A DNA stretch of 59,853 bases, counting the filler. It is 8 parts of 8 records of this genome, joined end to end, with 100 filler letters (N's around TTAATTAATTAA, not from the genome) between each part and the next. Parts side by side here need not be neighbours in the genome. Positions count along the whole stretch, not along the records: positions 33,029 to 38,459 come from SRR31156797_26966; 7 more parts are not named here. One strand, 5' to 3'. Below the pieces are notes generated by a model, which did no database searches, was not told where the DNA came from, and saw nothing but the letters and a program-made list of their open reading frames with translations. Below, piece by piece: positions 9,665 through 52,423 of the stretch; position 1 is the stretch's first letter, and each line of letters begins with the position of its first letter. A program made the position numbers and the translations under genes.

Positions 9665-9764
9665 NNNNNNNNNNNNNNNNNNNNNNNNNNNNNNNNNNNN
9701 NNNNNNNNTTAATTAATTAANNNNNNNNNNNNNNNNNNNNNNNNNNNNNNNNNNNNNNNNNNNN
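9665..9764. other. Artificial contig linker
   Basis: N44-TTAATTAATTAA-N44, which gives stops in all six frames. Base composition changes abruptly across it. Confidence 0.98.
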
Positions 9765-16451: not shown

Positions 16452-16551
16452 NNNNNNNNNNNNNNNNNNNNNNNNNNNNNNNNNNNNNNNNNNNNTTAAT
16501 TAATTAANNNNNNNNNNNNNNNNNNNNNNNNNNNNNNNNNNNNNNNNNNNN
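16452..16551. other. Artificial contig linker
   Basis: N44-TTAATTAATTAA-N44. Confidence 0.98.
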
Positions 16552-21875: not shown

Positions 21876-21975
21876 NNNNNNNNNNNNNNNNNNNNNNNNN
21901 NNNNNNNNNNNNNNNNNNNTTAATTAATTAANNNNNNNNNNNNNNNNNNNNNNNNNNNNNNNNNNNNNNNNNNNN
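21876..21975. other. Artificial contig linker
   Basis: N44-TTAATTAATTAA-N44. Confidence 0.98.
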
Positions 21976-30196: not shown

Positions 30197-30882
30197 GGAT
30201 ATCCTGGCGCGTTTCCCGCGAGGCCATTGAACAGGCCAAGCATTTTTTCGCGCCAAGCATATACTGCGTCGTCCGGTTCGAGCAGCCTGAATTCGCTGAT
30301 CGCTCGCGCCCACTGGAAACCGCCGAACACGATGTGATCGGCATAGCCGGGAAAATCGCCGGAAATAAAGGGCTGATCTTTCAGCGTTGCACGCAGGGGG
30401 GCCAGACTGGCCCGGAAATCGGTCACACGGTCTTCTCGTCCGGCCTGCACCTCTTCGAGCGTCCGCCCGAGGTGTCTTTCGCGGCTCGATCGGAAATAAT
30501 CTTGGTCGGCCGGATCGAGATGAAGAAATATGTCGTGGATGATCAGCGGAGAAATGCCGGGAAGCTGGACCCGGTCTGCCCATTGGTTGATGAACCGGCA
30601 TATGCCGGTGGCTTGGCCGTTGCCGAACATCGGGGCCGCATCGGGATAGGCGCGTTCGAGATAACACGCGATCGCCCAACTGTCGAAAACCGTTACGCCG
30701 TTGTCGATCAGCACCGGAACCCGGTCCTGGCCGCTGAACGCGAGAAGAGGCTTGTCCGAGAACCGGATGGGAACGGTCTCGGCTTCCAGGCCCTTGTTCG
30801 CCAAGGCCATCCGGATTCGCCAGCAATAGGGACTGAACGTGCGCCCGTCGGCACCGGTCAATTCGTAAAATTTTCGAGCCAT
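30190..30882 (-). CDS. Glutathione S-transferase, beta-etherase (LigE)-like family
   Basis: FSPYCWRIRMALANKGL, VPVL.D, DSWAIACYLE, PGYADHIVFG.FQWAR. Confidence 0.8.
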   Translation of the reverse strand: MARKFYELTGADGRTFSPYCWRIRMALANKGLEAETVPIRFSDKPLLAFSGQDRVPVLIDNGVTVFDSWAIACYLERAYPDAAPMFGNGQATGICRFINQWADRVQLPGISPLIIHDIFLHLDPADQDYFRSSRERHLGRTLEEVQAGREDRVTDFRASLAPLRATLKDQPFISGDFPGYADHIVFGGFQWARAISEFRLLEPDDAVYAWREKMLGLFNGLAGNAPGYPC

Positions 30883-32928: not shown

Positions 32929-33028
32929 NNNNNNNNNNNNNNNNNNNNNNNNNNNNNNNNNNNNNNNNNNNNTTAATTAATTAANNNNNNNNNNNNNNNN
33001 NNNNNNNNNNNNNNNNNNNNNNNNNNNN
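32929..33028. other. Artificial contig linker
   Basis: N44-TTAATTAATTAA-N44. Confidence 0.98.
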
Positions 33029-33071
33029 AGCCCGCAATCGCCTACTTTGCATATACTTCCCGTTGGGGTTA
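33029..33071 (+). repeat. 3' end of an attC-like recombination site (R' core GTTGGGGTTA), truncated by contig edge
   Basis: GTTGGGGTTA (33062-33071) is the exact reverse complement of TAACCCCAAC (33982-33991) at the far end of the Rpn gene. Confidence 0.6.
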
Positions 33072-33141
33072 ATGAGGACTTACATCTCCAGAAATTCTAT
33101 TAAATCAAGAAAAATAGTATTTTTGAAAAAATGTTTTTAAG

Positions 33142-33984
33142 ATGGAAGAGTTAAAAGAAAGATATATCAATCCGTTTACTGACTTTGGTTTCAAAAGACT
33201 ATTTGGTGAAGAACCTAATAAGGATTTGTTGATTGATTTTCTAAATGAAATACTAAAACACCAACAAGGTCGAATTGTTGATTTGACTTACTTAAAGACT
33301 GAGCAATTAGGAAAAACAGATATTGATAGAAAGGCAATATTTGACTTGTATTGTGAAAATGAAAAAGGAGAGAAATTTATTGTTGAAATGCAGAAGAGCA
33401 AGCAAAACTTCTTTAAAGATAGAAGCGTATATTATTCAACATTTCCAATTCAAGAGCAAGCTCAGAAATCAGATTGGAATTATGAATTAAAAGCAGTTTA
33501 TACAATTGGAATATTAGATTTTGTGTTTGATTCAGACAAAAATGATTCAAACAAATTTCGATATGATGTAAGACTTCAAGATATTGAGACTAATAAAACG
33601 TTCTACGATAAATTGACTTTTATATACTTTGAAATGCCAAAATTCAATAAGTCAATAGATGAATTGGAGAGTCATTTCGACAAATGGTTATATGTTCTTA
33701 AAAATCTTCATAAACTAGACCGATTACCAGAAAAGTTGAAAGAACAGGTTTTCGAGAAAGTATTTGAAGTTGCTGAGATTGCGAAGTTTTCTCGTGAGGA
33801 ATACATGTCATATGAGGACAGTTTAAAGTATTATCGAGATATTAAAAATTCATTAGATACTGCAAAACTAGAAGCCAAAGAAGAAGTTGTGTTGAATTCA
33901 ATAAAAATGGGGTTAGATTCGGAAACAATTTCAAAAATCACAGGGTTATCTATTGAACAGGTTGAAAGAATAAGAAATTACTAA
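33142..33984 (+). CDS. Rpn family PD-(D/E)XK nuclease (recombination-promoting nuclease/putative transposase)
   Basis: YINPFTDFGFKRLFG, IFDLYC...FIVEMQ, DRSVYY, FEMPKF, C-terminal ISKITGLSIEQV. Confidence 0.92.
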   Translation: MEELKERYINPFTDFGFKRLFGEEPNKDLLIDFLNEILKHQQGRIVDLTYLKTEQLGKTDIDRKAIFDLYCENEKGEKFIVEMQKSKQNFFKDRSVYYSTFPIQEQAQKSDWNYELKAVYTIGILDFVFDSDKNDSNKFRYDVRLQDIETNKTFYDKLTFIYFEMPKFNKSIDELESHFDKWLYVLKNLHKLDRLPEKLKEQVFEKVFEVAEIAKFSREEYMSYEDSLKYYRDIKNSLDTAKLEAKEEVVLNSIKMGLDSETISKITGLSIEQVERIRNY

Positions 33985-34118
33985 CCCCAACAAGCCATTA
34001 TAATGAATTGCGCGTGAGGCTGTTCTACGTTGTGAAATTAAGATGTTAAGCAAATCCAATTAACTTTGTGGGGATTCGGAAAAAGCGCAACTCATCATAT
34101 GGCCGATCCGTTAGCTAC
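33982..34118 (+). repeat. attC-like site (integron-cassette-type hairpin)
   Basis: CCCCAAC directly after the stop codon. Arms GCCATTATAATGAATTGCGC (33994-34013) and GCGCAACTCATCATATGGC (34085-34103) pair with one extra base and two mismatches that become G-T pairs on the bottom strand. Ends in GTTAGCT (34110-34116). Confidence 0.65.
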
Positions 34119-34139
34119 AATCACCCCTATTATTCAGGA

Positions 34140-34375
34140 ACACTTGAGTTTCTAAGCTAACGGGCGTACCTTCACCGTTAGAGCTCCTAGACAAGGCCGG
34201 TTTTTGCAATGGTGTTTAAAGTAACCCGAGCGCAATCAAGGTTAAAATGTAAAAGACATATGTGATCATTTATTTATATGTCTTGGGTTTGAGTTTAATG
34301 GTGTTGCAGTATGTATTTATTGTAAACCCGATCGGAATAATATCAAAGCGTAAGAATACATTTCATGGAGCTTTC
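34140..34375 (+). ncRNA. Candidate IS110 bridge RNA (boundaries approximate)
   Basis: Lies downstream of the junction -10 box. Stems CTAACGG/CCGTTAG, AAGACATAT/ATATGTCTT and AGCTCC/GGAGCT. Duplicated module AATGGTGTT...AACCCGA-N4-AAT whose second copy (TCGGAAT) matches the circle junction. Confidence 0.6.
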
Positions 34376-34397
34376 AAAATTATTTAAATGAGAGGTT

Positions 34398-35753
34398 ATG
34401 AAAAAGAAATGCATGAGTTTAGAGGTTGTAAATCCTAATGCCGCAGGTATTGATATTGGTAGTAAAAGTCATTGGGTTGCAGTAGGGCAAGATTCACAGG
34501 ATGTAAAAGAGTTTGGAGTCTACAGTGAGGATCATCAGGCCTTATGCGAGTATTTGCAAGAGAATCAAGTAACCACAATCGCAATGGAAAGCACCGGAAC
34601 CTATTGGCAAAATCTGTTTTCTTCGTTAGTAGGTTATGGTTTCGATGTTATACTTGTAAATGGCAGACAAACCAAGAATGTTCAAGGTAAGAAGACAGAT
34701 ATTAAAGATTGTCAATGGATCCAAAAACTACACAGTTTAGGATTATTAAGTAAAAGCTTTCTTCCGGATAGTACGACAGACGTTATTCGTACTTATTCAA
34801 GACATCGCCAAAATTTACTTAAACAATCTTCCAGAACAGTATTAAAAGTGCAAAAATATTTACGCTTAATGAATCTACGTTTAGATGTTGTAGTTAAGGA
34901 TGTTGTCGGATTAACAGGGACTAAGATCATAAATGACTTTTTAGGTGGGGAAAGATCAGGAAAGGTCTTGGCTCAGAATAGGCATTATAACTGTCGCAAA
35001 AGTGAAGAAGAAATATCAAAAGCACTTCAGTATAATGGACGAGAAGATTACTTATTTGCATTAAAACATGAATGGCGTACCTACTTGCATTTACAACAAC
35101 AAATAAAAGAAGTAGACACAGAGATAAAAACACTTTTAGAAGATATAATTGATAAGGATGATAATAAGAAACAGCATGTTACTGAAGAAAAGAGTCATAA
35201 AAGAAAAAACAAGAATACGATACATGGCGCAGATATGAACCAATTGGCCTATAAGTATTTTGAAGGGATTGATTTAATGGCAATAGAAGGAGTAAATGAT
35301 GCCACTATAATGGCAATTATCAGTGAGGTAGGGTTAGAGGGAATTCGAAAATTTAGTTCAGCAAAACAGTTTTCCTCCTGGCTTCGCTTAGCTCCCAATA
35401 ATAAAATTAGTGGAGGCAGAGTTTTGAGTCAACATTTGCCCAAGGGAAGTAGTCGTTTAAAAATTGCTTTACGAAATGCAGCCAATGCCATTGGAAACTT
35501 AAAAGAAGGCTATTTAGCCGAATTCTTTCATAAACTAAACTATAAAAAAGGTCGAGCAACAGCAGTAAGTGCAACAGCCAGAAAACTATCCGTTATCATA
35601 TGGAATATGTTAGTAAAGGGCGTTGCCTATAATCCTCCAGTTCAATATTTATACCTAGATCAGAAAAGAAAAATGGGTTTAGTTCATAGAATAAAAAAAC
35701 AAATGAATAAATTTGACATCAACCCAGAAGATTTAGGTTTTTCAAATGCTTGA
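34398..35753 (+). CDS. IS110 family transposase/recombinase (DEDD RuvC-like + Tnp20 domain)
   Basis: AAGIDIGS, AMESTGTYW, KKTDIKDC (DEDD); IEGVN...FSSAKQFSSWLRLAP...ISGG; ATARKL. Confidence 0.95.
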   Translation: MKKKCMSLEVVNPNAAGIDIGSKSHWVAVGQDSQDVKEFGVYSEDHQALCEYLQENQVTTIAMESTGTYWQNLFSSLVGYGFDVILVNGRQTKNVQGKKTDIKDCQWIQKLHSLGLLSKSFLPDSTTDVIRTYSRHRQNLLKQSSRTVLKVQKYLRLMNLRLDVVVKDVVGLTGTKIINDFLGGERSGKVLAQNRHYNCRKSEEEISKALQYNGREDYLFALKHEWRTYLHLQQQIKEVDTEIKTLLEDIIDKDDNKKQHVTEEKSHKRKNKNTIHGADMNQLAYKYFEGIDLMAIEGVNDATIMAIISEVGLEGIRKFSSAKQFSSWLRLAPNNKISGGRVLSQHLPKGSSRLKIALRNAANAIGNLKEGYLAEFFHKLNYKKGRATAVSATARKLSVIIWNMLVKGVAYNPPVQYLYLDQKRKMGLVHRIKKQMNKFDINPEDLGFSNA

Positions 35754-35940
35754 TAATCTGAATTATGGGTTTGACGTTAGTCGGAAGGCAAGATGAGCAG
35801 CTTGGTTAATATAAGATGAATTACAATTTGAAAAATAGGATTGAAAATATAGGCTTATTGATTGAAGGTTGGTGCAAGAAAAAAATAGTTTTTGCCACCG
35901 CGCTTCTGCCCTTCGGGACAGTTGGGGTAGCCAACTCACA

Positions 35941-36001
35941 TTGCACACATTTGCAAATCGCATCAGCTGACACACAAACCGAAATTTGCAAAAGAGTGCA
36001 A
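35941..36001. repeat. Imperfect inverted repeat upstream of the phosphoesterase gene
   Basis: TTGCACACATTTGCAAAT ... ATTTGCAAAAGAGTGCAA, 16/18 complementary. Confidence 0.6.
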
Positions 36002-36030
36002 TCTTTGCCGACGCTCAAAAAACTGCATAC

Positions 36031-36690
36031 ATGAAACGACTCTTTGCTATTGGTGATATTCATGGTTGTTTTGATTCATTTAAAGAATTAGTTGAAACTC
36101 AAATTCAGCTTTCAAAAGATGATAAGCTTATTCTATTAGGCGACTATATTGACAGAGGCAATAAAAGTAAAGAGGTTATTGATTATATTATTGACCTTCA
36201 AGAAAAAGGATTTGATATTATTACTCTTCTTGGGAATCACGAGATGCTACTTTTAGAAACTCTTGAGGATGAAAAGAACAAATCTAAATGGATTCAAAAT
36301 GGTGGAACCGAAACACTAAAAAGCTTTAAGATTGAATCAGTTAACGATATTCCCCCCGAATATTTAGAATTCTTTAAAAATCTGCAGAACTATTATTCAT
36401 TCGAAGAATTCTTGTTTGTTCATGCAGGATTTAATGATAAAGTAGTTAATCCATTTCAGGATACCTATTCGATGATTTGGAAAAGTCAAGCTACGTATTC
36501 TAATCCAATACTTGCAGATAAAAATATTATTCACGGACATAGACCAATTACTACAGAACGTTGTATGAAACAACTTGGTGAAAATAAGCAAGTAATAAAC
36601 ATTGATACTGGTTGTGTTTATAAGGAAAAGGTTGGTTATGGAAAGTTAACTGCAATTGAATTGTATTCAAAAATGCTATTCTACGTATAA
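36031..36690 (+). CDS. Metallophosphoesterase (Ser/Thr protein phosphatase, PphA/ApaH-like)
   Basis: IGDIHG, LGDYIDRG, LGNHE, FVHAG, HGH, NIDTG. Confidence 0.92.
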   Translation: MKRLFAIGDIHGCFDSFKELVETQIQLSKDDKLILLGDYIDRGNKSKEVIDYIIDLQEKGFDIITLLGNHEMLLLETLEDEKNKSKWIQNGGTETLKSFKIESVNDIPPEYLEFFKNLQNYYSFEEFLFVHAGFNDKVVNPFQDTYSMIWKSQATYSNPILADKNIIHGHRPITTERCMKQLGENKQVINIDTGCVYKEKVGYGKLTAIELYSKMLFYV

Positions 36691-36695
36691 TTTTA

Positions 36696-36731
36696 TATAT
36701 TTGATTATTCTTAATTCGCGAATCGCGAATT
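36696..36731 (+). promoter_or_regulatory. Bacteroidota -7 promoter box plus palindromic operator
   Basis: TATATTTG (TAnnTTTG, 36696-36703) followed by the perfect inverted repeat AATTCGCGA-A-TCGCGAATT (36713-36731), 13 nt before the ATG. Confidence 0.65.
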
Positions 36732-36744
36732 GAAAACAAAAGAT

Positions 36745-37266
36745 ATGAAAAAGCATAATGGGATGCGCCCCCAAGACATAGTTGTTTTACTAAAAATCAT
36801 AGCCTTAAAGCATGATGATTGGTATAACTCTGATTTAGCACAATCATTAAAAATCAGTCCATCTGAAATATCCGAAGTATTGAATAGGTGTAAAATTGCA
36901 GGCTTAATAGATTCAAAAAAACGTAAGGTTAATATTAATTCCTTTATGGAATTTTTAATCTACGGTTTAAAATATGTGTTCCCTACTCAGCCAGGTGCTA
37001 TAGTAAAAGGAATTCCTACAGCGCATTCGGCATCACCGATTAAGGAGCATATTTCAAGTGGTTCAGATATTTATGTTTGGTCAAGTGCCAAAGGAACTCA
37101 ACGTGGACAATCAATAGAACCTCTTTTTAAATCAATTCCTCAGATTGTACAAGATGACATATTATTCTATGAGTTACTGGCTATTGTTGACACAATACGG
37201 GTTGGACGAGTTAGAGAAATAAACATAGCTAAAACAGAACTGGAAAAACGATTAAAGCATGCTTAG
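36745..37266 (+). CDS. Winged-HTH protein, putative AbiEi-like antitoxin
   Basis: MRPQDIVVLLK...DLAQSLKISPSEISEVLNRC..AGLI (HTH). Stop overlaps the nucleotidyltransferase start. Confidence 0.65.
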   Translation: MKKHNGMRPQDIVVLLKIIALKHDDWYNSDLAQSLKISPSEISEVLNRCKIAGLIDSKKRKVNINSFMEFLIYGLKYVFPTQPGAIVKGIPTAHSASPIKEHISSGSDIYVWSSAKGTQRGQSIEPLFKSIPQIVQDDILFYELLAIVDTIRVGRVREINIAKTELEKRLKHA

Positions 37267-37951
37267 TACAAATATTGAAATGCTACAGACAGTAGCAAAC
37301 GGGTTAGGAGTTTTAAAAGATGATATGGTATTTGTTGGCGGTGCAGTAGCTGAATTGTATGCGAGTAATCCTGAATTATCTGATATAAGACCAACGCTTG
37401 ATGTGGATTGCGTTATTGAATTGCGTTCAAAAACAGCACATGTCAAATTAGAAGAAGACTTAAGAGCTTTAGGGTTTGCTAATGACACCTCAAAAGGAGC
37501 TCCTATTTGCAGGTGGATTTATCAGGATATTATGGTAGATGTAATGCCTTCTGATTCTGATATATTGGGATTTAGCAATAAGTGGTATGATGAAGGAATT
37601 GAAAAGAAGATTTCAAAAACTCTTCCAAATGGAACTGAGGTATTCGTATTTACACCAGAATATTATTTAGCAGCAAAGTTTGAAGCTCATAAAGGGCGTG
37701 GTGGAAATGATTTAAGGCAAAGCCACGATTTTGAGGATATCATTTTCATACTAGATAATTGTTCCGAAATTCTGGATAATATTTCAAACGCAAATGAGTC
37801 TGTGAAAACATATTTAAAAGAGGAATGTAGTAATTTATTGAAAAATGATGGAATAACAGAAGGAATTGAAAGTGCTTTGACCTATGGTTCAGAAGAAGAA
37901 GCTACTGAAATAATTATTGAATTAATCCAAAGTATAGCTGATATTGAATAA
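37259..37951 (+). CDS. Putative nucleotidyltransferase toxin, AbiEii-like
   Basis: VFVGGAV...RPTLDVD...VDVMP...KFEA...R...SHDFEDI, the Pol-beta-like NTase motif order of AbiEii/MenT-type proteins. Confidence 0.7.
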   Translation: MLSTNIEMLQTVANGLGVLKDDMVFVGGAVAELYASNPELSDIRPTLDVDCVIELRSKTAHVKLEEDLRALGFANDTSKGAPICRWIYQDIMVDVMPSDSDILGFSNKWYDEGIEKKISKTLPNGTEVFVFTPEYYLAAKFEAHKGRGGNDLRQSHDFEDIIFILDNCSEILDNISNANESVKTYLKEECSNLLKNDGITEGIESALTYGSEEEATEIIIELIQSIADIE

Positions 37952-38445
37952 TGAATAAAGGTAAACAAACATATAAATTACCTAAGGGGTGGATATTTGT
38001 TACGCTTGAAGATGTGTCAAAACAAATTACTGATGGTTCTCATAACCCTCCTAAATCAGTAGATTCAGGCATACCTATGCTAAGTGCACGAAATATTGAA
38101 GATAGTAATATTGCTTTTGATGATGTGCGCTATTTAACAACTGAAGATTTTGCTTATGAAAATCAAAGGACGAAAATTGAACATGGAGATGTATTACTTA
38201 CAATAGTAGCAACAATAGGTCGCACAGCTGTTGTATCAAAGAATATTAATCCAAAATTTGCATTGCAAAGAAGTGTTGCTGTCATTAAACCATTAATAAA
38301 CAGTGAGTTTTTAATGTATTGCTTCCAATCTCCACGATTTCAGAAAAAACTAATAGAGAATGCAAAAGGCACAGCTCAAAAAGGAGTTTATCTAAAAACA
38401 CTGCGGAACCTCGAAATTCCAATTGCGCCCAAACCCTTTGGTTAA
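37951..38445 (+). CDS. hsdS: Type I restriction-modification specificity subunit, N-terminal TRD only (truncated near contig end)
   Basis: LPKGWIFVTLEDV, ITDGSHNPP, GDVLLTIVATIGR, GTAQKGV.LK.L..LEIPIAP. Confidence 0.85.
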   Translation: MNKGKQTYKLPKGWIFVTLEDVSKQITDGSHNPPKSVDSGIPMLSARNIEDSNIAFDDVRYLTTEDFAYENQRTKIEHGDVLLTIVATIGRTAVVSKNINPKFALQRSVAVIKPLINSEFLMYCFQSPRFQKKLIENAKGTAQKGVYLKTLRNLEIPIAPKPFG

Positions 38446-38459
38446 TCGGGTGCCCTTTG

Positions 38460-38559
38460 NNNNNNNNNNNNNNNNNNNNNNNNNNNNNNNNNNNNNNNNN
38501 NNNTTAATTAATTAANNNNNNNNNNNNNNNNNNNNNNNNNNNNNNNNNNNNNNNNNNNN
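38460..38559. other. Artificial contig linker
   Basis: N44-TTAATTAATTAA-N44. Confidence 0.98.
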
Positions 38560-44129: not shown

Positions 44130-44229
44130 NNNNNNNNNNNNNNNNNNNNNNNNNNNNNNNNNNNNNNNNNNNNTTAATTAATTAANNNNNNNNNNNNNNN
44201 NNNNNNNNNNNNNNNNNNNNNNNNNNNNN
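44130..44229. other. Artificial contig linker
   Basis: N44-TTAATTAATTAA-N44. Confidence 0.98.
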
Positions 44230-52323: not shown

Positions 52324-52423
52324 NNNNNNNNNNNNNNNNNNNNNNNNNNNNNNNNNNNNNNNNNNNNTTAATTAATTAANNNNNNNNNNNNNNNNNNNNN
52401 NNNNNNNNNNNNNNNNNNNNNNN
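52324..52423. other. Artificial contig linker
   Basis: N44-TTAATTAATTAA-N44. Confidence 0.98.

Follow-up and report, generated by a model that had tools for sequence, protein, structure and literature searches.

We found that a gene encoding an Rpn-family protein, at the very start of the fifth contig of the DNA stretch analysed here (the window, 59,853 nt, made up of eight contigs), is very probably a mobile gene cassette of an integron-like array system found in many Bacteroidota, with an insertion sequence (IS) of the IS110 family homing to the recombination sites of that system. In the mechanism that we propose, the 132-nt attC-like site at the end of the cassette would fold from the bottom strand, presumably as single-stranded DNA in the cell, and a tyrosine recombinase would cut the R' core between G and TT. 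Excised as a circle of ~1.05 kb, the cassette would then be inserted at another site, and such a history of excision and re-entry would explain why TAACCCCAAC (R'') exactly complements the cassette's own first bases, GTTGGGGTTA. The recombinase would be encoded elsewhere than on this contig and is most likely an Xer-like enzyme that has an additional N-terminal part but not the insertion specific to integron integrases (IntI); in relatives, such an enzyme appears to head the array and to point in the same direction as the cassettes. The non-coding RNA of the IS110 element would complement CCGTTAGC, and the element would insert in one orientation at the R' end. The system may well be active at present.

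The cargo gene (33142-33984, + strand) is an open reading frame of 280 amino acids. Its product matches Pfam PF12784 (E = 1e-78) and NCBIfam TIGR01784 (100.3 bits against a cut-off of 52.1) and, judged by both family cut-offs, belongs to the Rpn family (PDDEXK_2), as a PD-(D/E)XK nuclease or putative transposase. Upstream of the gene lies an attC-like site of which the contig end leaves only the 3' half (33029-33068, + strand), comprising the L' arm, the spacer and an R' box, GTTGGGG, at 33062-33068. A profile built from 12 sites of other genomes matches 33028-33066 (E = 0.0014), and 26 nt of the half site (33031-33056) are identical by eye to part of a site in another genome, G002 (L098:13268-13397). 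A complete attC-like site of 132 nt follows the gene (33985-34116, - strand). With a half site at the contig start and a complete site after it, the Rpn gene is thus flanked by two sites, and the cassette that they define (33063-34110, + strand; 1,048 bp) runs from the TT that follows the upstream crossover (boundary 33062/33063, G/T) and ends with the G of its own R' core.

The complete site consists of R'' (CCCCAAC, 33985-33991), a spacer (33992-33993), L'' (33994-34013, 20 nt), a variable loop (34014-34084, ~71 nt), L' (34085-34103, 19 nt), a second spacer (34104-34109) and R' (GTTAGCT, 34110-34116). When the bottom strand is folded, the arms pair over 19 bp in an uninterrupted stem, with a single base of the L'' arm bulging out, whereas in the top-strand fold the same stem is interrupted by mismatches (A.C on the top strand where the bottom strand has T.G). 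Folding of both strands thus agrees with the first-pass annotation of this DNA, which had described an imperfect hairpin with one extrahelical base and with pairs that form only on the bottom strand. That annotation had also reported that GTTGGGGTTA at 33062-33071 and TAACCCCAAC at 33982-33991 are exact reverse complements over 10 of 10 nt and that the stop codon of the Rpn gene runs into the latter; both statements hold in the sequence, and the TAA within TAACCCCAAC is the stop codon. The new core that it saw after the hairpin is present as GTTAGCT, although at 34110-34116 and not at 34111-34117; the cassette joint, 34110 to 33063, had been placed correctly.

Sites of the same plan were noticed in the flanks of relatives of the IS and in long runs of intergenic repeats in the same genomes. 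In order, such a site has xxxxAAC, a brief spacer, a first arm (~20 nt), a middle part that varies, a second arm (~17-19 nt), a 5-6-nt spacer whose last letters are CC, and GTTxxxx, for a total length of about 130-133 nt. We aligned 18 such sites, read as bottom strands, and obtained a consensus of 21 pairs, 15 of which show compensatory double changes. In this alignment 90.2% of cells were paired, as against 33-50% when the partners were slid by 1-3 columns; the covariation score was 0.498 against at most 0.141, and none of 500 shuffles reached the observed values on four of five measures. Three of the pairs are G.U on the bottom strand, each in 14-17 of the 18 sites, and would be A.C mismatches on the top strand. 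This conservation points to the bottom strand as the one selected to fold, as in integron attC sites.

From 17 sites of other genomes we built a covariance model (R2; its E-values are rough), which, with filters off, matched 33985-34116 from end to end (model positions 1-131 of 131; 34.9 bits, E = 2.2e-7). It assigned R'' to CCCCAAC, in agreement with the first-pass annotation, and not to a nearby CTAAC. The second-best match in the window scored 15 bits, and nothing else was significant; this second match (30659-30698, - strand, E = 0.036), on the neighbouring G+C-rich contig, covers only the outer boxes and a short stem and is probably due to chance. R2 and the profile mentioned above, both made without the window, replaced an earlier nhmmer profile of the 3' half that contained both window pieces and whose matches in the window we discounted. 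A home-made script for scoring stems in the flanks of the IS was dropped, since it could not separate real flanks from shuffled ones. Across a survey sample of 151 genomes of the phylum, model R1 matched sites in 79. Near-identical types of attC-like site occur in three genomes (G001, G002 and G003; loci L092, L096, L007 and others), suggesting transfer between genera of cassettes that share one site type.

The relation between R' and R'' seen in the window recurs in a related array. In G001, a Draconibacterium-type assembly found via locus L037, 18 co-oriented sites lie within ~24 kb, spaced 0.6-4 kb apart. At 13 of 17 junctions, R' and the bases that follow it in one site are the exact reverse complement, over at least 9 nt, of R'' in the next; one additional junction is complementary by eye but was misjudged by the script, which makes 13 a lower bound. 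For sites that are not neighbours, matches of 8 nt or longer occur in 10 of 289 pairs, some of them involving duplicated cassettes by eye. Such chained complementarity would be left behind by rounds of excision and insertion in which the cut falls between G and TT, and it is the same relation as the 10/10 match in the window.

Contigs from three public sequencing runs, one of them the probable source of the window and the other two (X3 and X4) from one other study, provided a second view of the G/TT point. The upstream half site is common to 12 of these contigs, which diverge from the window at 33064-33074, and in the source run at least three other contigs join the same half site to different DNA. 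On two contigs (in X3 and X4) there is a cassette closely related to the Rpn cassette, with 15 and 23 differing letters over about 300-390 nt; in both, the match begins at 33062 and is preceded by 27 unlike letters. In X3 and X4, the first 110-nt bin, in which the half site lies, has a summed depth ~20-25 times that of the Rpn gene. Both sides of the G/TT point are therefore found with other partners, and the Rpn gene is not in fixed synteny. These two short contigs of one study are the only Rpn cargo seen elsewhere, and tblastn found no Rpn relatives in the fetched loci. A further run, X2, yielded only two 151-nt pieces of the IS.

Pfam and NCBIfam searches found no tyrosine recombinase on this contig, and none lies on the two other low-G+C contigs of the window. 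In G001, each of two arrays has a tyrosine recombinase gene within ~1.2 kb of the first site and on the cassette strand. One of these recombinases, of 373 amino acids, scores above the cut-off of NF040815 ("site-specific tyrosine recombinase/integron integrase"; 223 bits against 220) and below that of TIGR02249 (integron integrase; 200 bits against 265), which it matched in two pieces. Aligned to VchIntIA (2a3v) over residues 106-270 and 300-371, it has 29 residues where the integrase has 72 (~43 fewer), whereas its alignment to XerA (5hxy) shows no such break, indicating that the IntI-specific insertion is absent from the array-linked enzyme. The protein also has ~100 additional N-terminal residues. 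The term integron-like therefore fits these arrays, and integron in the strict sense does not, as the IntI-specific insertion is missing from the enzyme linked to them in relatives. Next to the 24-kb G001 array, the recombinase (L088 1495-2337, - strand) has 280 amino acids and keeps the N-terminal extra part and a catalytic domain that is 98% identical to that of its 373-aa paralogue; a SAM-like core-binding domain was undetected in it, and it looks like an internal deletion. The genome G002 holds ~30 near-identical copies of a gene for a 308-aa tyrosine recombinase, several of them within 20 kb (for example, C6:1066303-1085696), and this gene looks like a multi-copy mobile element of its own.

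Within the survey sample, a protein like the array-linked enzyme (E at most 1e-50) was present in 51 of 151 genomes. The attC-like sites go with this Xer-like gene (41 of 51 genomes with it, 38 of 100 without; odds ratio 6.7, in a genome-level association that ignores shared ancestry) and are not enriched with IntI genes, called by the curated TIGR02249 cut-off (29 of 50 genomes against 50 of 101; odds ratio 1.4). Around the 20 best Xer-like genes outside G001, R1 found 31 sites within 10 kb in 13 of 20 loci, downstream of the gene and co-oriented with it in 12 of the 13; within 10 kb of the 20 best IntI-type genes, it found sites at none. An IntI above the cut-off was likewise absent from all five genomes that hold relatives of the IS, all of which have sites and three of which have cassette arrays. 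This linkage indicates that the Xer-like enzyme most likely moves these cassettes. The IntI-type genes of the phylum (for example, L130-L149) are full-length TIGR02249 matches, mostly in single copy, and many lie 0.2-1.5 kb from a contig end, which hints at a repeat beside them.

The first-pass annotation had proposed, from the letters alone, an integron-like cassette from a Bacteroidota array, mobilised by a tyrosine recombinase not on the contig. The second half site upstream, the end-to-end R2 match and the covariation of the family bear out the cassette; arrays in relatives, such as the 18 co-oriented sites of G001, make an array likely here too; and the recombinase is indeed missing here and from the two other low-G+C contigs. 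Of the checks that it proposed, a search of Bacteroidota genomes with a covariance model (R1) found such sites in 79 of 151, and the start-to-end complementarity whose absence from homologous loci it named as a refutation appears at the junctions of the related array. Fixed synteny of the Rpn gene across strains, which it named as a refutation, is contradicted by contigs of other runs that break at 33062-33067. In place of the linked recombinase with the IntI-specific insertion that it proposed to look for, the linked enzyme in relatives is Xer-like. It made no mention of the IS110 element that starts 2 nt past the GTTAGCT core, or of the core region being an IS target too.

This element (34118-35786, + strand; 1,669 bp) has CAATC at its left end and GTCGGAA at its right end, ends that are accurate to ~3 nt. 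Homology among 79 relatives of the transposase locus spans about 34118-35786, and where one genome has copies at different places, their similarity stops exactly at CAATC on the left and at GTCGGAA on the right. The gene for the RNA-guided transposase of the IS110 family (34398-35753, + strand; 451 aa) encodes PF01548 and PF02371, the DEDD/RuvC-like and Tnp domains, and matches NF033542 with 217 bits against a cut-off of 140. There are no terminal inverted repeats; 280 nt upstream of the gene and 33 nt downstream are non-coding. The left non-coding end (34118-34397, + strand) has a conserved structure, with 55 consensus pairs in 17 copies, 18 of them with compensatory changes, and is a candidate bridge RNA. 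Judged by its domains, its structured upstream end and its specific target, the element belongs to the IS110 group of the IS110 family. No IS excision joint was present among the public-run contigs, which drop rare forms.

The left end also contains a stretch, AGCTAACGG (34156-34164), that is complementary over 9 nt to the target CCGTTAGCT (34108-34116). GCTAACG is invariant in the left end of the 17 copies, and in one locus (L003) the guide-like bases beside it and the target are both altered and still complementary. In nearly all copies, CCGTTA or CGTT lies 4-7 nt to the left of the IS, which corresponds to the conserved spacer-plus-R' of the site family; the target positions nearest the junction vary, and CCGTT 8-12 nt away is constant. 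The right end of the IS carries CGTTAG as well. R2 found 64 sites in the 79 IS loci, all 64 co-oriented with the transposase. A full 3-kb left flank was available for 35 of the loci, and in 17 of these a site ends at the left end of the IS, 250-325 nt ahead of the start codon; four of these 17 sites are training rows of the model. A guide-like stretch complementary to the spacer-plus-R' CCGTTAGC would account for the landing of this IS family, in one orientation, at the R' end of sites, and the candidate bridge RNA may thus guide the element. In the window, the IS lies outside the 7-nt R' core, so the Rpn cassette's own site is intact, and the IS now forms the first part of the DNA that follows the cassette.

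Several observations weigh against this interpretation. The fold of the window's site is not more stable than those of shuffled sequences (z = +0.43 for the bottom strand, +1.01 for the top), and the contig has 6 pairs of 10-nt inverted repeats no more than 1.2 kb apart, fewer than the average of 16 found in 200 shuffles; as neither the fold energy nor the 10-nt repeat exceeds chance, the case rests on position (R' against the next R'') and on the other genomes. A sequence-only profile ranks the complete site as weak (E = 6.1), and its R''-L'' spacer has 2 nt as against 3-4 nt in most relatives. This 5.4-kb contig carries only one and a half sites and no recombinase, so an array in the window's organism is deduced rather than seen. 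Excision circles, excision joints and empty sites were absent from the public-run contigs, from which rare forms drop out. Roughly one IS copy in two lies at a CGTTA motif that is not part of an attC-like site. The association with the Xer-like gene, as noted, takes no account of common descent; IntI-type genes above the TIGR02249 cut-off occur in 50 of the 151 genomes, and one of them, in G021, lies 3.7 kb from a four-site array, which leaves room for an IntI acting in trans.

One alternative, which we regard as possible if unlikely, is that the Rpn cassette is a relic: once mobile, in an array now dead without its recombinase, with the IS insertion as a sign of decay. A recombinase is missing from this contig and the two other low-G+C contigs, and in proteobacterial integrons IS1111-attC elements reportedly mark the ends of decaying arrays. 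The attC-like site is nevertheless intact, the IS having spared the R' core; the same half site is joined to other DNA in the source run, on at least three contigs; and this contig is too short to be informative on the recombinase.

Distinctly more doubtful is that these are ordinary integron cassettes, on which a true IntI encoded elsewhere acts in trans, and that the Xer-like gene next to the arrays is a bystander or cargo. The frequency of TIGR02249 matches in the phylum, the IntI-type gene in G021 and the classical attC plan with its G/TT crossover that the sites share would all suit such an arrangement. It sits poorly with the flanks, where sites adjoin 13 of 20 Xer-like genes and 0 of 20 IntI genes, and with the lack of IntI enrichment among genomes with sites. 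It would also have to accommodate the five IS-bearing genomes that lack an IntI above the cut-off, among them G001, whose array has duplicated cassettes.

We give very little credence to the idea that the hairpin with its GTTAGCT core is part of the IS110 element, as an end or as a carried copy of the target, rather than of a cassette system. The IS does begin 2 nt past the core, its right end has CGTTAG and its RNA complements the core region, but the copies at different places in one genome have nothing in common to the left of CAATC, about half of all copies lack such an adjoining hairpin, and arrays contain many sites far from any IS; the multi-copy comparison led us to reject this candidate. 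Coincidence, that is, a random 10-nt inverted repeat with a terminator-like or REP-like palindrome after the gene, would fit the repeat counts and fold energies of the shuffles, but is most improbable given that an independent structural model recognises the site, that covariation backs the fold, that a second site lies exactly at the partner position and that other contigs break at G/TT.

The fifth contig (33029-38459; 5,431 bp) has a G+C content of 0.34. The eight contigs range in G+C from 0.31 to 0.61 and are joined by seven N44-TTAATTAATTAA-N44 linkers (9665-9764, 16452-16551, 21876-21975, 32929-33028, 38460-38559, 44130-44229 and 52324-52423); as they are separate contigs, neighbouring stretches need not share an organism, and features spanning a linker are artefacts. 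One linker, at 32929-33028, lies directly to the left of the cassette region, so the DNA left of 33029 is unrelated to it. Beyond the IS, the next cassette or the flank of the array begins (35787-36032, + strand), with a conserved motif of ~70 nt at 35937-36009, an imperfect palindrome that lies after the IS and before the next gene. Copies of the motif are found in L030, L031 and L093 (the last inside a G001 array); in the marine runs X3 and X4 it is many-fold deeper than the Rpn gene, and 36002 is a point of divergence for several contigs. A role as cassette-borne promoter, leader or small RNA is possible. The genes that follow (35986-38445) encode a calcineurin-like phosphoesterase (metallophosphatase), a winged-helix/helix-turn-helix protein, an unannotated protein of 230 amino acids and a truncated type I restriction specificity subunit; these genes may together form one multi-gene cassette, or may lie in the flank past the end of the array. 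The site-model search found no additional attC-like sites on the contig downstream of the IS. An Rfam scan of 33030-36000 with E up to 10 returned three chance-level matches only, and neither an attC nor a bridge-RNA family.

We compared the system with those described in the literature. IntegronFinder 2.0 reported for Bacteroidetes only In0 elements and one complete integron, in Salinibacter (PMC9024848), and Bacteroidota are listed among the phyla with integrons (PMC8618304, PMC9668308). As in sedentary chromosomal integrons and in CALIN (PMC9024848), the arrays are co-oriented, consist of mostly single genes and have lineage-specific types of site. Each cassette likewise ends in an imperfect palindrome of the 130-nt class with AAC...GTT outer boxes and a longer inner stem, and the sites share extra bases on the double-prime arm, pairs that form on the bottom strand only and the G/TT crossover with chained R'/R''. 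Unlike in integrons, the array-linked recombinase is ~43 residues short at the IntI-specific domain (200 against 265 bits), has ~100 extra N-terminal residues and points the same way as the cassettes, and the IntI genes of the phylum are unlinked to these sites.

The layout also resembles the rAID-1 arrays, described from gut Bacteroidales, in 226 of the 423 surveyed (Ross et al. 2019, bioRxiv 10.1101/471110), with which it shares a tyrosine recombinase of XerD-like kind at the 5' end, short co-directional genes of low G+C downstream, and repetitive intergenic sequences that the authors of that work called reminiscent of integrons (bioRxiv 10.1101/471110; PMC12247911). The prevalence is over half in each case (226 of 423 genomes for rAID-1, 79 of 151 for attC-like sites here). 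The likeness is one of layout and of the Xer-like nature of the recombinase, which in the definition of rAID-1 is at least 44% identical to BF9343_RS08045. The definition also asks for at least two co-directional genes of at most 41% G+C; in relatives, the sites are downstream and co-oriented in 12 of 13 loci, and the contig with the Rpn cassette has 34% G+C. The cargo here is an Rpn nuclease, as against an immunity gene there, and the relatives here are marine or sediment Bacteroidia and Flavobacteriia. The rAID-1 account, as far as its available text goes and its supplementary motif figure aside, describes motifs without a folded attC-like structure, a G/TT crossover or chained complementarity.

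For the IS, the closest parallel is the IS1111-attC group (ISPst6, ISKpn4 and ISPa21; Tetu and Holmes 2008, Post and Hall 2009, via PMC11187229), in which elements of the IS110/IS1111 superfamily insert one-way at one end of cassette recombination sites; insertion by IS1111 members is now explained by a guide RNA that the IS encodes (PMC11187229). By analogy, the element described here is the Bacteroidota counterpart, of IS110 build, of these proteobacterial elements. They have a long non-coding end downstream and subterminal inverted repeats, whereas this element has its 280 non-coding nt upstream and 33 nt downstream; it also differs in its occurrence in Bacteroidota, in targeting the sites of Xer-type arrays and in that only about half of its copies lie in sites. 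With IS621 and other IS110 bridge-RNA elements (PMC11208160) it shares the DEDD and Tnp domains, a left non-coding end that is long and structured, the lack of inverted repeats at its ends, and a sequence-specific target with a complementary RNA stretch. It differs in its longer transposase (451 aa), in having no Rfam match and in its target, of which the positions nearest the junction vary. The left end matches the description of the bridge or seek RNAs of IS110-type elements (PMC11208160, PMC11187229). In the literature on integrons or attC in Bacteroidota and on IS110, bridge RNA and attC, as far as its available text goes, we found no description of this site structure or of such IS110-type homing.

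Whether these arrays represent a second lineage of integron-type gene capture in Bacteroidota, with an Xer-like recombinase, attC-like sites folded from the bottom strand, a G/TT crossover and an IS110 guide tuned to the spacer-plus-R', is in our view an evenly balanced question. Rpn proteins of E. coli are toxic antiphage nucleases (PMC10400941), and the Rpn nuclease cargo of the window fits the idea that arrays store toxin and defence genes. If these arrays are such a lineage, about half of the genomes of the phylum would carry a system that is largely invisible to integron finders requiring IntI, and surveys with this requirement would not class the arrays as complete integrons. The IS110 element would provide a natural pairing of a guide RNA with a recombination-site target in Bacteroidota, parallel to the IS1111-attC elements of Proteobacteria, and an RNA-guided transposon would thus parasitise a structure-guided cassette system and perhaps reshape it. 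For integron integrases, the extra domain is considered necessary for reading the flipped-out bases of folded attC sites. The same site plan served by an Xer-like enzyme would then mean either another way of reading such sites or an older form of the integron.

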